64,000 bases of DNA. It comes from Clostridium thermobutyricum (GTDB lineage Bacteria > Bacillota > Clostridia > Ch29). Below the pieces are notes generated by a model. The model did no database searches, had not been told where the DNA came from, and saw only the letters and a list, made by a program, of their open reading frames with translations. Positions 46,249 through 50,612 of the stretch are shown in pieces. The DNA lies in contig JAENYX010000003.1 in assembly GCA_016841565.1 (NCBI GenBank), positions 14,030 to 78,029 of the forward strand, given 5' to 3'. The position numbers and the translations under genes are program-made. How positions within the stretch are numbered: the first letter of the stretch is position 1; every line of letters begins with the position of its first letter.

Positions 46249-46456
46249 GTTAGCCCTCCTAAGATAATTATATAATGTAAAAAAGTCGCTGTCGGTGCGA
46301 CTCTTCCAAAGTTAAAGTTGTTTGTTAACCACCATAAATATATCATATTTAAACCGGTTGTCAACAGGCCCATACCGCCAATGGACTGAACCCGATTCCG
46401 GCCCGTTTTTTGGATGATTGGGGGCTGACCGGGCTTAATATCAAAGCGGAATTGTT

Positions 46457-47886
46457 GACAAAGCCTGGAGGTACCTCAGCATGTAAAACAATCGGTAATA
46501 GACTTTGCCAATGCAGGAAAAGAGATAACAATACCGAAGAAAGAAATAGAGTACTATGGTACCACCATAGCAGGGTACATGGTAATGGACCCCGATACCG
46601 GGGCCGCCGGCTACCTGATATCAGGAGGTACGGCCGGTGGCAAGACAAGTCTTCTCCAGCTTATCGGTCAGAAACTCAAAGACACAACCCTGTCAGCAGT
46701 TGTGTTTTTAGTTGAAGCCCGTTGTAGATTATACGTGCCCGGCCAAGACGATATATATTATGAGGCGGTATCGGAAGGCTTTGTAAGAGGCTACATTGGT
46801 GGTTTTGCAGGTGCCGTTAAAGCGGAATGGAACAATATAAAAGACTTACCCAAAATGGTTAAAGCAGCTTTAAAATTTGCAGGGGATTATATCACCAAAG
46901 ACGAGTTCAGGGATAAAGTAAAGGATGATTTGGAAAACCTTGTAAAAATGCTCCCTGAAGTCTGGAGTAAAATAGATGAAATAACGCAGAGCATATATGA
47001 ATATTATCTGAATGAAGTGGAAGACGTAGCATATGGGGCTTTGGGCCTGGCAAGAGCCGACAGGTATTTTCAAGAATTTGCAATATGCTATTCAGGTGGT
47101 AAAATTGCCGGATTTATAACCGTAACAGTGGCAGGGGCCATAATCGGAGCAAAGGTAGTAGCAATAATAAAGGATTTTATAATGGCCAGCAAGCTGGGAG
47201 TAATATTTAAAATCCTGCAGGTAGCCAAAGGAAGTGCCATTAAATACGTAGTCGATGTATTCAATAAGGCAAGCTCAAGTGTAAAGAGTGTATTCTTTAA
47301 CGTACTAGATAAAATTAAGGCTGAAATAAATGATGCATCCCTGCTAAGGTTGGTTCCCAAGTATTTCAGTGAAGGTATGGACGAAATAGAGGATACAATA
47401 AGACGGTACGGGGATGAGGCTGCGGAAAAAATAGCGGAAAGTATAATATATATAAAGCAACTAATAGGTAATCTTAACATAAAAAATGCAATAGAGAAAT
47501 CAGCGGATGATGCTAACGATTGGTGGAGAATCATGCAGGGATATGACAAACCCCCATATAAACCAGGAACCAGGGTAATTGAATTCGAACTTGAAAATAA
47601 TCATACTTTTGTCAGAGTATATGATGATATAAATTCTTCGATGAAAGGACAATGGATTATGAAAGAGGAGGATATTCTTGGGTTGTCTCCGGCTCAGATT
47701 AGGCAGAAGTTTGCTTTGCCTGCGGAGCCAAAATATATAGTAGATGTTGAATTAGATGCAGGAACTAACTTGAGGTGTGGTATAGCCAATGGGGTCGAAG
47801 ATTGGGGAGTACAAGGAGGAGGAGTACAGTTTGATTTAATGGGACAATTTGTTAATGGATTTAAAAACCCAAGACCACTTAATTAA
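46457..47886 (+). CDS. putative polymorphic-toxin-like protein; the reading frame is open upstream of the first ATG (46573) with no start or RBS, so it is possibly a 5'-truncated orphan toxin module. Distinct ~110-aa C-terminal domain (…KYIVDVELDAGTNLRCGIANGVEDWGVQGGGVQFDL…) of unknown activity.
   Basis: Lower GC than flanking DNA. The frame continues 39 codons upstream of the first Met with a protein-like sequence (VIDFANAGKEITIPKKEIEYYG...DPDTGAAGYLISGG). It is followed 14 nt later by a small AT-rich gene, and its 3' end is duplicated downstream. Confidence 0.4.
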
Positions 47887-47895
47887 AAGGGAGGG
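47857..47895 (+). repeat. cassette-junction repeat, copy 1 (toxin 3' end plus immunity RBS): GGATTTAAAAACCCAAGACCACTTAATTAAAAGGGAGGG
   Basis: 35 of 39 identical to 48461-48499. Confidence 0.8.
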
Positions 47896-47900
47896 ATCAT

Positions 47901-48260
47901 ATGAAAAACGAGATTGTTTTCAAATATAATAAAAATATATTAATCATTAATGATAAACAACTTGAATTTGAATATGAAATAGAAGATATTAAAGAAGTTA
48001 ATGGCATACTTGCTGTTCTTTTAGGCGTATCTGCTAAATCATATAGTATAGACAATTTGTATGGAGTAAATTCAAAAGGAGAAATTATTTGGCGTGTACA
48101 AAGTGTAAATGAAATATATCCAAGCATTATTAGCTCTCCCTATGTTGCTTTAAAAATTGCTCCTTCAGGGGATATAGCAGTTACTAATTTTGCTGGTGTA
48201 CGTTATTTTGTAAATCCTAAAGACGGTAGTATTACAGGTAAAGAAGTAATAGGTTGGTGA
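47901..48260 (+). CDS. small protein, candidate cognate immunity protein
   Basis: 119 aa and very AT-rich (~30% GC). Strong GGGAGGG RBS 5 nt upstream, beginning 14 nt after the toxin-like gene. Confidence 0.4.
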   Translation: MKNEIVFKYNKNILIINDKQLEFEYEIEDIKEVNGILAVLLGVSAKSYSIDNLYGVNSKGEIIWRVQSVNEIYPSIISSPYVALKIAPSGDIAVTNFAGVRYFVNPKDGSITGKEVIGW

Positions 48261-48371
48261 CTGAAGGTAGAGGACGGGGAAGAGATACTGGCAGGAGTAT
48301 ATGATTCAAAGCAAGTGAAGTTTGTACCACCAACAGCGGGATAGGCTATTAATCCGGATACGGTATATGAC

Positions 48372-48415
48372 GAAGAATAGAACTGAGGGATTACTTTCTC
48401 TTGGTTCTATTCTTC
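48372..48415 (+). terminator. hairpin GAAGAATAGAAC-N20-GTTCTATTCTTC downstream of the immunity-like gene
   Basis: 12-bp perfect stem. Confidence 0.4.
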
Positions 48416-48458
48416 ATATAAAGCAATCGGAAGAACCGTCCCTTGCTTTGAAGTATTA

Positions 48459-50612
48459 GTGGATTTTAAAACCCAGGACCACTTAATTAAAACGGAGGGT
48501 TCGCCTGATTCCGGTTGCTTGCCAAAAACGCCGGTTTGGAATATTATATTAATAACATTAAAGTGTAAAAGTGGTGATGATACCATTTACAACAAAACAC
48601 TTTTTATTATTCTGACAGTAATTCTATTCACTATCTTCCCATTCACTCAAAAACCCGGCACTTATGCATCGGGAACCAGCCTGCCGCAGGTGTTGAATGT
48701 GGGTGTAGACCCCAGCCTGCCTCCTTTCCAGTTTTTGGACAACGGAGAGCTGACCGGGCTTAATATTGATGTTTTAAATTCCATTGCGCTGGTTAACGAC
48801 ATTCGGATCAACTACATACCTATGAATAAGGATATCAGTATTGACAAGCTTTTAAGCGGAGAGGTAGACATGATACTGGGCATCAGATACGATGCTGCTT
48901 TAGCCGGGCATATAGATTATACCGAGAGCATAGTGCAGTCGGTGGTATGTATGCTTGCCAAATCGGAAATTCACAAGGAGATCCAGGCCAATCTGAACAG
49001 CGCTCCCTATCTGGCCAGCGTTGAGAACAACTCGGCAGAGCTCAGCTTCCTTTACAATCTCAGGAGGGTGAGCTATAACGTTGCCTTCAGCCAGGAGGAT
49101 GCCTTTGAACTGCTGCTGATCGACAGGGCGGACTTTCTGCTGGGGGTTAAGGATACGGCCGAATACCTGCTGAACAAGCATAACCTGTCCAGGGAATACA
49201 CCATGATAGACAGCTATGTCACCCCGGTGGAATTCCTGATAGCGGTAAGGCCCGAGAATACAAGGCTGATGAACACGATAAACTATGGGCTTAGCAGGCT
49301 GAAGCTGAGCGGCGAATACGAAAAGCTCTATTACAAATGGGTGGAAAACGGCGAGGCAAATATGGTAAGGCGTCTGGAGCGGGTTATAAGGCTGAGCCTT
49401 ATGGGCGCTTCAGTAATAGGCGTTGTTATTCTTATAGTTGCCGCATGGAATATCAAGCTCAAGGAGCAGGTAAATCTAAAGACAAAAGAGCTTTCCAAAA
49501 CCAACTCCGACCTGGAAGCACAAATCATAGAGACCAGAAACAACATCGAGCTCAAAAACCTTATTTGTGAAAGCAGCCCCAGGGGTATTGCCATATTCGA
49601 CCTGGACGGCGTCATATCGGTGTTCAATAACTCCGCCCTTGGTATAGCATCACTGACAGAGCCTCCTATAGACAAATCGATATATGATATTGAGCCCATA
49701 AGCCTGATGGTCAGGGGTACAATTGATGAAGTGTTGAAGAACAATGCCGCATACACCTGTGATGAGTTTAAGTACAGTAAAGCGGACAATGAATTCATAT
49801 ACAGATATATAATGTACCCTCTTCATGATTATGCAGAAAAACTAAGAGGTATCATAATAACCATTGAAGACATAACCGAAGAAAAAAGAATTAAGACCCA
49901 GATGATTGAAAGGGATAAAAACAGAGCGCTGACACAGATTATAGCCGGGATTTCCCATGAGATAAGAAATCCCCTGACCACAATCAAAGCCTTCATAGAG
50001 CTTATACCGGGCAAAATAGGCAATAAAAAATTCCGGGAAGAGCTGGCAGTGGTGGTGCCGGATGAGATAAAAAGGGTGGACAACCTTATAGAGAGCTTAA
50101 TAGACTATTCAAAGCCCAGGAGTCGGAACAAGACCACCGTTGATGTGCAGGAGATGGTAGCTTCATGCGCAGCCTTGTTTAAGCCGGTGCTGGAACAAAA
50201 CAATATTGATATTTGCATGGACATTGCTGCAAATCTCAGAATATACTGCGATAAAAGCCAGATAAAGCAGGCCCTTATTAACTTTCTTCTTAATTCTATA
50301 GATGCGGTTATGGAGAAAAAGGAGAGGTGTAAGGATGGAAGTTATAAAGGCAGGATTGATATTGAGGGCTATACCGGCGGTGGTCATGAGGTTCTGACAA
50401 TCAGGGACAACGGAATTGGGATGGATGAGTCTGAGCTTGAAAAATCCTATGATATGTTTTACACCACAAAGGCAAAGGGAACCGGCCTTGGCATCCCGCT
50501 ATCGCTGCAGATGCTCAATATGAATAACTGTGAGGTGTCCATTAAGAGCCGCAAGAACATGTTTACCGTTATTACCCTGAGGTTTCCAGGACAGCGGGTT
50601 CAAGTAAGCTGA
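48459..50612 (+). CDS. sensor histidine kinase with a periplasmic solute-binding (PBPb / SBP_bac_3-like) domain, TM, PAS, HisKA and HATPase_c domains
   Basis: Periplasmic domain LNVGVDPSLPPFQF...; HisKA H-box ISHEIRNPLTT; G-boxes near the C-terminus. The start is uncertain (GTG 48459 lies inside the junction repeat; the native start may be internal). Confidence 0.8.
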   Translation: MDFKTQDHLIKTEGSPDSGCLPKTPVWNIILITLKCKSGDDTIYNKTLFIILTVILFTIFPFTQKPGTYASGTSLPQVLNVGVDPSLPPFQFLDNGELTGLNIDVLNSIALVNDIRINYIPMNKDISIDKLLSGEVDMILGIRYDAALAGHIDYTESIVQSVVCMLAKSEIHKEIQANLNSAPYLASVENNSAELSFLYNLRRVSYNVAFSQEDAFELLLIDRADFLLGVKDTAEYLLNKHNLSREYTMIDSYVTPVEFLIAVRPENTRLMNTINYGLSRLKLSGEYEKLYYKWVENGEANMVRRLERVIRLSLMGASVIGVVILIVAAWNIKLKEQVNLKTKELSKTNSDLEAQIIETRNNIELKNLICESSPRGIAIFDLDGVISVFNNSALGIASLTEPPIDKSIYDIEPISLMVRGTIDEVLKNNAAYTCDEFKYSKADNEFIYRYIMYPLHDYAEKLRGIIITIEDITEEKRIKTQMIERDKNRALTQIIAGISHEIRNPLTTIKAFIELIPGKIGNKKFREELAVVVPDEIKRVDNLIESLIDYSKPRSRNKTTVDVQEMVASCAALFKPVLEQNNIDICMDIAANLRIYCDKSQIKQALINFLLNSIDAVMEKKERCKDGSYKGRIDIEGYTGGGHEVLTIRDNGIGMDESELEKSYDMFYTTKAKGTGLGIPLSLQMLNMNNCEVSIKSRKNMFTVITLRFPGQRVQVS
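48461..48499 (+). repeat. cassette-junction repeat, copy 2 (frameshifted toxin tip plus RBS) fused onto the 5' end of the histidine-kinase ORF
   Basis: GGATTTTAAAACCCAGGACCACTTAATTAAAACGGAGGG. It translates as DFKTQDHLIKTEG, compared with GFKNPRPLN* in copy 1. Confidence 0.8.

Follow-up and report, generated by a model that had tools for sequence, protein, structure and literature searches.

The segment at positions 46366-48520 of a 64,000-nucleotide (64-kb) stretch of the Clostridium thermobutyricum contig JAENYX010000003.1 (here called the window, whose numbering is used throughout) is a ~2.15-kb remnant of a polymorphic-toxin locus, located between a cyclase gene and a sensor-kinase operon. 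We consider it highly probable that this cassette consists of an orphan toxin fragment that can no longer be exported, together with a functional immunity gene. An initial annotation had proposed a 5'-truncated toxin module without a delivery domain, followed by an immunity gene, and this proposal is borne out by the truncation of the toxin frame, the presence of its C-terminus on many carriers, a related scaffold with a swapped C-terminus, and the pairing of toxin domain and immunity gene in six contexts. The toxin gene and its partner are laid out as follows.

46459-47889, plus strand: 5'-truncated polymorphic-toxin gene, an open frame of 476 codons plus stop.
46462-46641, plus strand: conserved "handle", the last ~60 residues of the parents' large N-terminal region (...VIDFANAGKEITIP..EIEYYG..GYMVMDPDTGAAGYLISGGTAGG).
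46642-47463, plus strand: helical, hydrophobic linker (pre-toxin region), common to protein P0002, whose toxin domain differs.
47464-47886, plus strand: C-terminal toxin domain (frame residues 335-474, core from ~47500), a predicted TNT/Tne2-type NAD(P)+ glycohydrolase.
47890-47900, plus strand: intergenic spacer with the Shine-Dalgarno sequence GGGAGGG, by direct sequence reading.
47901-48260, plus strand: immunity gene, DUF7957 (PF25857), 119 amino acids (aa), a predicted three-blade β-propeller fragment.

The open reading frame (ORF) at 46579-47886 on the plus strand comprises 435 codons from the first ATG of its frame at 46579; the annotation at NCBI gives a 433-aa product that starts at ATG 46585, which P0001 matches at 100%. 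Upstream, the frame is closed by a TGA at 46456-46458 and is open from 46459, 40 codons ahead of the first ATG, with no in-frame ATG, GTG or TTG upstream of 46579 and just a weak "AGGG" in place of a canonical ribosome-binding site ahead of that ATG. Because the codons upstream of the first ATG match other proteins at 48-75% identity, they are true coding sequence, in agreement with the ~39 protein-like codons lacking a ribosome-binding site that had been noticed initially.

A homology search with the 474-residue frame (its numbering is used here for all residues except glutamine 417, which is counted in the 435-aa ORF) divides it into a scaffold (residues 1-337) and a toxin domain (~335/347-474). 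A HMMER search with residues 1-340 recovered 565 proteins at E ≤ 0.001, nearly all of them matching residues ~2-65 alone, which correspond to the handle motif (...VIDFANAGKEITIP...EIEYYG..GYMVMDPDTGAAGYLISGG). In long relatives (1000-1430 aa) this motif is located at residues ~790-870, and since the start of the window frame aligns there, some ~790 N-terminal residues have been lost. Transglut_core was found at ~240-390 in all eight of the relatives scanned by Pfam, four of which end in Tox-REase-5, AHH or PT-HINT(+AHH), and both of the full-length handle relatives that were read begin with a signal peptide. The window fragment has neither of these features of its full-length relatives. The lost region would comprise the signal peptide and transglutaminase-like domain of a Sec-exported toxin, along with most of its conserved body, and the ability of the fragment to be exported appears to be gone. 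We infer from the 60-residue handle alone that the gene descends from Sec/transglutaminase-type polymorphic toxins. The initial annotation had placed the locus among Rhs, LXG and CdiA-type loci; this placement does not stand, as neither Pfam nor NCBIfam gave a match in the 474-residue frame to an LXG domain, RHS repeats or TPS/filamentous-haemagglutinin repeats, and the probable parent is of the type with a Sec signal peptide and a transglutaminase domain. RHS repeats also gave no match in the eight handle relatives scanned by Pfam.

The scaffold is shared with P0002, a protein of 540 aa from the short Logan contig L001, which aligns at 47% identity over frame residues 1-337 and then diverges into an unrelated C-terminus, followed 14 nucleotides (nt) downstream by an unrelated 138-aa gene. 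At DNA level, conservation with L001 is highest in the handle (73-76% identity, vs 46-63% beyond it), as would fit a substrate for recombination. P0002, too, is an orphan truncated at its 5' end, the cut lying ~72 residues further upstream than that of the window copy (L001 221-2897); its distinct C-terminal domain comprises 122 aa, and the genes that follow (138 and 166 aa) have no Pfam match. L001 may represent another uncharacterised toxin/immunity pair. Two metagenome scans with the scaffold gave no match to a full-length parent, and a PDB sequence search with the whole fragment returned only noise.

Homology of the large ORF to a phage structural protein was also considered. Residues 93-355 gave weak PHROG matches to three tape-measure families (best E = 7e-5, 21.7 bits), as would suit a piece of a tape-measure protein from a phage tail or of some other structural protein of a phage. 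However, these matches are gappy (222 residues vs 470 profile positions) and limited to the helical linker, and both ends of the protein have strong and specific homology to polymorphic toxins. Furthermore, the flanks hold no phage genes, consisting instead of thiolase, CoA-transferase, dehydrogenase, permease, cyclase, two-component system and TRAP transporter genes. We therefore rejected the tape-measure similarity, which we judged to be compositional, and regard a phage origin of the ORF as extremely improbable.

At the boundary between scaffold and toxin domain, homology to P0002 stops at residue 337 and homology shared among toxin domains begins at residues 335-347. The initial annotation had described a C-terminal domain of ~110 aa unrelated to the middle of the protein; its separateness from the middle is upheld, whereas its length is ~128-140 aa. 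The last ~130 residues match the C-termini of 30 other proteins at 45-63% identity, and the carriers of this domain include LXG proteins (PF04740), RHS-associated core proteins (PF25023), PT-TG proteins (PF14449) and proteins with choline-binding repeats, as well as Cu_amine_oxidN1 (PF07833), DUF4280 (PF14107, PAAR-like) and Fil_haemagg_2 (PF13332) proteins. A scaffold with swapped C-termini, combined with a C-terminus found on many scaffolds, defines polymorphic toxins, and these alignments point to that pattern. The toxin domain had no match in a plasmid collection, and in a phage collection it matched only two short, unverified Listeria "phage" records.

To what fold the domain belongs was assessed by structure prediction, a check that had been proposed initially and that proved informative. 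An alignment of 23 C-termini revealed 24 invariant positions, among them the R in FVRVYD, KFALP and GGGxQ-D-L, all of which are kept in the window copy. An AlphaFold2 model based on this 23-member alignment (pLDDT 95.3, pTM 0.88) was found by Foldseek to resemble, among PDB entries, Tne2 (6B12, E = 4.4e-4), Serratia Rhs1-CT (6XTD) and Tse6 (4ZV0), followed by fungal NADases, and the predicted structure has the palm-type fold of TNT, Tse6 and Tne2. Eleven of the 23 family members also hit Pfam TNT (PF14021), all below the gathering score (best E = 2.3e-4). In TNT-type NADases the sole strictly conserved residue is a glutamine near the C-terminus (Gln1452 in Rhs1-CT), which positions the nicotinamide ribose (Hagan et al. 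2023, PMC10539506). The glutamine of GGGxQ is invariant in 23 of 23 members and is residue 417 of the 435-aa ORF in the window copy; it lies in the matching place and is the probable equivalent of the catalytic glutamine of TNT-type NADases. From the predicted fold and this one motif, we conclude that the domain is a putative TNT/Tne2-type NAD(P)+ glycohydrolase, whose killing activity would most likely be hydrolysis of NAD+ and NADP+. It is very unlikely that the domain instead has a different activity within the ADP-ribosyltransferase-like superfold, such as ADP-ribosylation of proteins or nucleic acids. The initial suggestion of a new toxin family is set aside, given that the domain has the known TNT/Tne2 fold in its predicted structure and that Tne2-like C-termini are already in the literature. 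The profile searches that had also been advised were only partly productive, since Pfam and NCBIfam returned nothing meaningful for either protein of the cassette, and LXG, RHS and PT-TG emerged on the carriers.

The gene that follows begins 11 nt past the TAA stop of the toxin frame (47887-47889), which is 14 nt past its last sense codon, and AAAAGGGAGGGATCAT stands directly ahead of its ATG. Its GC content of 0.289 is the lowest of all 360-nt windows in the 64 kb. The very AT-rich 119-aa ORF with a perfect ribosome-binding site (GGGAGGG) that had been described 14 nt downstream is thus as it was reported. The exact 119-aa product bears a precomputed PF25857 (DUF7957) tag. A Pfam/NCBIfam scan of the protein gave no match, the copy of Pfam used being without PF25857 and blank even for tagged members. 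A single-sequence homology search recovered only the protein itself, and a four-sequence profile search identified 105 relatives, nearly all of them tagged PF25857 and mostly 110-116 aa in length.

Inspection of the loci of toxin homologues revealed that this association recurs. A PF25857-tagged gene lies directly 3' of the toxin homologue in Clostridium sp. DL-VIII (L003), in Candidatus Formimonas warabiya (L004) and at a metagenome LXG locus (L006/L007), and the three DUF7957 proteins comprise 115 aa and are 34-36% identical to that of the window. In addition, a Listeria-derived sequence (L014) encodes, on a partial gene, a toxin domain of 49% identity, with an overlapping DUF7957-like ORF of 125 aa behind it (hhalign 99.3%), and a Cohnella Rhs-type homologue (L002) is followed by a truncated, 87-aa copy of DUF7957 (99.4%). 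In all six contexts (the window, L003, L004, L006/L007, L014 and L002) the DUF7957 gene thus lies 0-15 nt past the toxin stop or overlaps it. On L001, where the C-terminus is different, the downstream 138-aa gene is unrelated to DUF7957. Linkage in six contexts on differing carriers provides strong comparative evidence for a cognate immunity role, and the small gene that had been called immunity-like, with DUF7957 homologues directly after the toxin domain in five other contexts, merits that name. The protein is predicted to form a small three-blade β-propeller fragment and, by analogy, most likely acts by binding the NADase and blocking its active-site cleft. DUF7957 had no mention in the literature searched.

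Two of these loci have features of their own. In Cohnella cholangitidis the DUF7957 gene is cut short (L002 5674-5937) and the Rhs gene upstream of it is seemingly split into several ORFs, which gives the impression of a locus in decay. Downstream of the toxin/DUF7957 pair of Clostridium sp. DL-VIII come a phage-type integrase, an IS110 transposase and an ADP-ribosyl-exotoxin/ADP-ribosylglycohydrolase pair (L003 6606-9704), so that this region resembles a mobile toxin island.

Comparison among strains revealed how the two genes of the cassette vary. The cassette is present with the same left junction in GCA_016841135.1 (99.9% identical; contig begins at window position 46417) and in the Logan sample ERR14940443, and the immunity gene is identical in three assemblies. 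The contig end at 46417 was not used as a sign of a repeated scaffold, strain heterogeneity being equally possible. In ERR14940443 the toxin frame is split at window position ~47305 (TA), upstream of the toxin domain, where contig L013 ends (8720-8750) and contig L012 begins (1-27). The split is flanked by ~27-nt imperfect inverted ends, TATAAGTTGCAATAAATATTTTACAAT and the reverse complement TATAAGTTGCGATTAAGACATTACAAG, and bears the signature of an insertion sequence. Since the toxin frame appears to be interrupted in this way in a ~98%-identical strain, it is apparently dispensable. To the right of the split, window positions 47308-48520 (scaffold end, toxin domain, immunity gene and spacer) show 0 differences from L012 over 1213 nt. 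The scaffold left of the insertion point shows 14 nucleotide differences (1.66%), 8 of them amino-acid-changing, and the flanking genes differ from those of the window by 1.0-3.3% (3.3% for the cyclase). The tract without differences may reflect recent exchange of the toxin C-terminus (CT)/immunity unit or a chimeric metagenome contig, and is offered as a lead only. Beyond the cyclase gene, homology to L013 stops at window position ~45600, 7 nt past the cyclase stop codon; left of this point the window contains a 3-hydroxyacyl-CoA dehydrogenase gene and L013 contains DUF4213-like and Ldh_2 genes. This position is a second rearrangement breakpoint adjoining the cassette.

These strain data bear on the proposal that the cassette is an active intracellular toxin-antitoxin or abortive-infection-like module. 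In such a module, the product initiated at ATG 46579 or 46585 would stay in the cytoplasm, restrained by the immunity protein, and loss or degradation of the latter (for example upon phage infection or loss of the island) would lead to depletion of NAD+. A complete toxin domain with all family-invariant residues, the 433-aa coding sequence annotated by NCBI, a weak promoter-like site at 46505-46532, and the absence of any difference across toxin domain, spacer and immunity gene between two strains that diverge by 1-3% in the flanks would all suit this proposal. Conversely, neither ATG has a usable ribosome-binding site, no PADLOC defence model matches either protein, and the architecture is that of a truncated export toxin rather than that of a dedicated toxin-antitoxin toxin. 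Moreover, the frame is split by an insertion sequence in another strain that has retained the cassette, and the 8 amino-acid changes among 14 nucleotide differences in the scaffold suggest relaxed constraint. Weighing these observations, we regard an active module of this kind as distinctly unlikely. A more speculative variant, to which we give slightly less credence, is co-option, in which the intact fragment and the propeller immunity protein would form an intracellular NAD+-depletion switch, with the ~115-aa DUF7957 protein forming as an oligomer a full propeller around or against the NADase. Were this the case, the DUF7957 oligomer would represent an immunity architecture not described for any NADase toxin.

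The borders of the cassette were set by gene relics and by the point at which homology to relatives begins, and comprise the following features.

46366-46458, plus strand: left border, a short non-coding relic that separates the cyclase promoter from the toxin frame.
48364-48420, plus strand: hairpin 3' of the immunity gene (inverted repeat I5; ΔG -30 kcal/mol, z-score -7.5, 0 of 200 shuffles as good).
48456-48502, plus strand: right border, a decayed 47-nt copy of the toxin's last codons, stop and immunity-gene ribosome-binding site, the original of which lies at 47852-47898.

On the left, the cassette adjoins a putative cyclase gene (45607-46248, minus strand) with a promoter-like site on the same strand (46364-46337, 11 of 12 matches); thiolase, CoA-transferase, dehydrogenase and permease genes are found further upstream. 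Within the left relic, direct repeat D2 relates positions 46407-46441 to 48732-48766 (83% identity over 35 nt, 18 of which form an exact core; E = 0.002 within the window), the latter being part of the histidine-kinase gene, 2.3 kb downstream, in the stretch that codes for its solute-binding domain. The upstream copy, an orphan piece of that coding stretch, lies precisely at the left junction of the cassette. The relic's own frame reads ...PARFLDDWGLTGLNI..., vs FQFLDNGELTGLNI in the kinase, and its 38-aa translation, which is too short for such a scan, had no Pfam match. An insertion of the cassette into a copy of the kinase gene was considered and not upheld, as clear relatedness is limited to ~35 nt and no model matches the 38-aa translation. 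On the right, direct repeat D1 (89% over 47 nt; 40 nt at 92.5%, E = 2e-9) defines the decayed copy, in which the toxin frame now has an extra premature stop. The kinase operon that follows encodes a sensor kinase with SBP_bac_3, PAS and HisKA domains, a sigma-54 response regulator and a TRAP transporter. In two related metagenome-assembled genomes, whose kinases are 82% and 74% identical, homology to the window does not set in before ~48520-48535, where a kinase promoter-like site is located (48519-48547). No secretion-system, phage or plasmid genes were found near the cassette. The hairpin lies ~100 nt past the immunity gene, occurs as a single copy in the window and has no U-tract after it; it may be a terminator. 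An Rfam scan gave only a sub-threshold chance match.

The relic also bears on the start of the kinase gene. The mechanical start of its ORF, GTG 48459, which is also implied by the 717-aa gene of the near-identical L010, falls within the 47-nt relic of the toxin tail, ahead of the conserved promoter-like site, and the first ~45 kinase residues are not conserved in the relatives L008 and L009. Translation probably begins further downstream, in a region without an obvious canonical in-frame start codon.

The composition of the segment is also unusual, as noted initially for a ~2.1-kb region described as more AT-rich than its surroundings. Positions 46390-48500 have a GC content of 0.390, vs 0.447 for the whole window; among same-size windows the standard deviation is 0.030 and 5.7% are as low or lower, so that the dip is genuine yet modest and not extreme. 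GC is even lower at ~3500-5600 (0.356 over 2.1 kb), a region that codes for a transporter of the Mem_trans family (3589-4512, minus strand) and for the first part of a PrpR-type sigma-54 activator (4957-6930). Low GC, relics at both borders and homology that begins only at the kinase promoter speak for foreignness and rearrangement.

Such a rearranged segment might also be regarded as inert, decaying debris as a whole, in which the immunity gene is merely without lesions so far. The gene relics at both borders, the truncation itself, the insertion sequence in the sister strain, the unusual composition and the lack of a parent toxin gene within the 64-kb window would be expected of debris. We nevertheless consider this explanation unlikely, given that the Shine-Dalgarno sequence of the immunity gene is perfect, its frame is full-length, the conserved residues of its family are present, and the gene is identical in three assemblies. 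Furthermore, orphan immunity genes are retained and protective in other polymorphic-toxin systems (PMC10539506, PMC10327511).

We accordingly return to the orphan toxin fragment with a functional immunity gene, against which several observations weigh. The toxin domain is fully intact and has an in-frame ATG, making intracellular expression possible. Its enzymatic assignment meets marginal sequence similarity, with the family profile reaching only E = 0.2 against Tne2, yet aligning GGGiQ with Tne2 GGVQQ, and with no match at E ≤ 1, TNT included, in a Pfam scan of the window toxin domain. A tblastn search of the 64-kb window with the fragment, P0002 and P0033 found no full-length parent or paralogue, a result that excludes only a parent at the same locus; because of it, the reservoir role considered below has no visible recipient here. 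Finally, no clean empty site was found in two kinase relatives, where the genes upstream differ and L008 carries a transposase; as synteny upstream of the kinase differs in each relative, no empty site is demonstrable.

In this orphan cassette, the last ~60 conserved residues, the helical linker and the complete C-terminal toxin domain are kept and ~790 N-terminal codons are lost. In the mechanism that we favour, the toxin domain would hydrolyse NAD+ and NADP+. The 119-aa DUF7957 protein would be translated from its own strong ribosome-binding site and would plug the active-site cleft of the NADase, as the unrelated immunity proteins of Tne2, Tse6 and Rhs1 do. With no export domain, the resident fragment would be unusable as a weapon, and the immunity protein would shield the cell from NADases of this family delivered by neighbours as well as from leaky expression of the resident fragment. 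The handle may also allow the unit of toxin domain and immunity gene to be transferred by recombination to a full-length toxin gene, so that the cassette would act as a reservoir.

Among the closest known systems is Tne2-Tni2, a type VI secretion system NADase effector and its partner in Pseudomonas protegens (PDB 6B12), which belongs with Tse6/Tne1, Serratia Rhs1-CT, M. tuberculosis TNT and fungal AfNADase to a wider group of TNT-like NADases. Tne2-like C-termini on Gram-positive LXG and Rhs toxins were pointed out earlier (PMC10539506, discussion). LXG toxins with a C-terminus predicted to be Tne2-like are the Listeria monocytogenes "Omicron" toxin (PMC10327511) and Enterococcus faecalis OG1RF_12414 (PMC7790226), and the immunity genes adjoining such toxins also occur as orphans (PMC10327511, PMC7790226). 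The window domain is likewise found on LXG proteins (PF04740) and may belong to one family with the domains of these two toxins, whereas the window copy is carried by another, truncated scaffold.

The organization of the cassette resembles the orphan CT/immunity modules of contact-dependent inhibition (CDI) and Rhs systems, for which a C-terminal displacement model was proposed (Jackson et al. 2009, as cited in PMC10327511) and of which orphan immunity in Serratia Rhs1 loci is an example (PMC10539506). As in these modules, a 3' fragment of a toxin gene with a short conserved upstream stretch precedes an intact immunity gene, and the CT/immunity unit is also found on other carriers. Unlike classical orphans, which lie in arrays just downstream of the full-length gene, the window module stands alone among metabolic and regulatory genes, with no parent in the 46 kb upstream or the 15 kb downstream. 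With respect to its carrier, Sec-dependent polymorphic toxins with an N-terminal (inactive) transglutaminase domain have been described (Zhang et al. 2012, PMC3482391), and the handle relatives resemble this class in their signal peptide, Transglut_core at ~240-390 and C-termini of the AHH, Tox-REase-5 and PT-HINT+AHH types. They differ from it in that RHS repeats follow the transglutaminase domain in that class and gave no match in the relatives found here, and the window copy differs further in being without the entire N-terminal region.

The organization, the toxin fold and orphan immunity are all known already, and current concepts are unchanged. What is modestly new is the link of DUF7957 to a Tne2-like family of NADases, an immunity protein predicted to fold as a propeller fragment, and a solitary orphan from the transglutaminase-type carrier class. 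Two "hypothetical protein" annotations are thereby replaced by a defined cassette, comprising a truncated toxin, apparently of the Sec/transglutaminase type, with a predicted Tne2/TNT-like domain and a DUF7957 protein. Linkage of the genes in six independent contexts suggests for DUF7957 a function open to testing, immunity to NADases of a Tne2-like family that is spread over the Bacillota on at least seven carrier types. If the predicted propeller fragment is true, DUF7957 would represent a fourth unrelated solution to the inhibition of NADases, alongside Tni2, Tsi6, RhsI1 and IFT.

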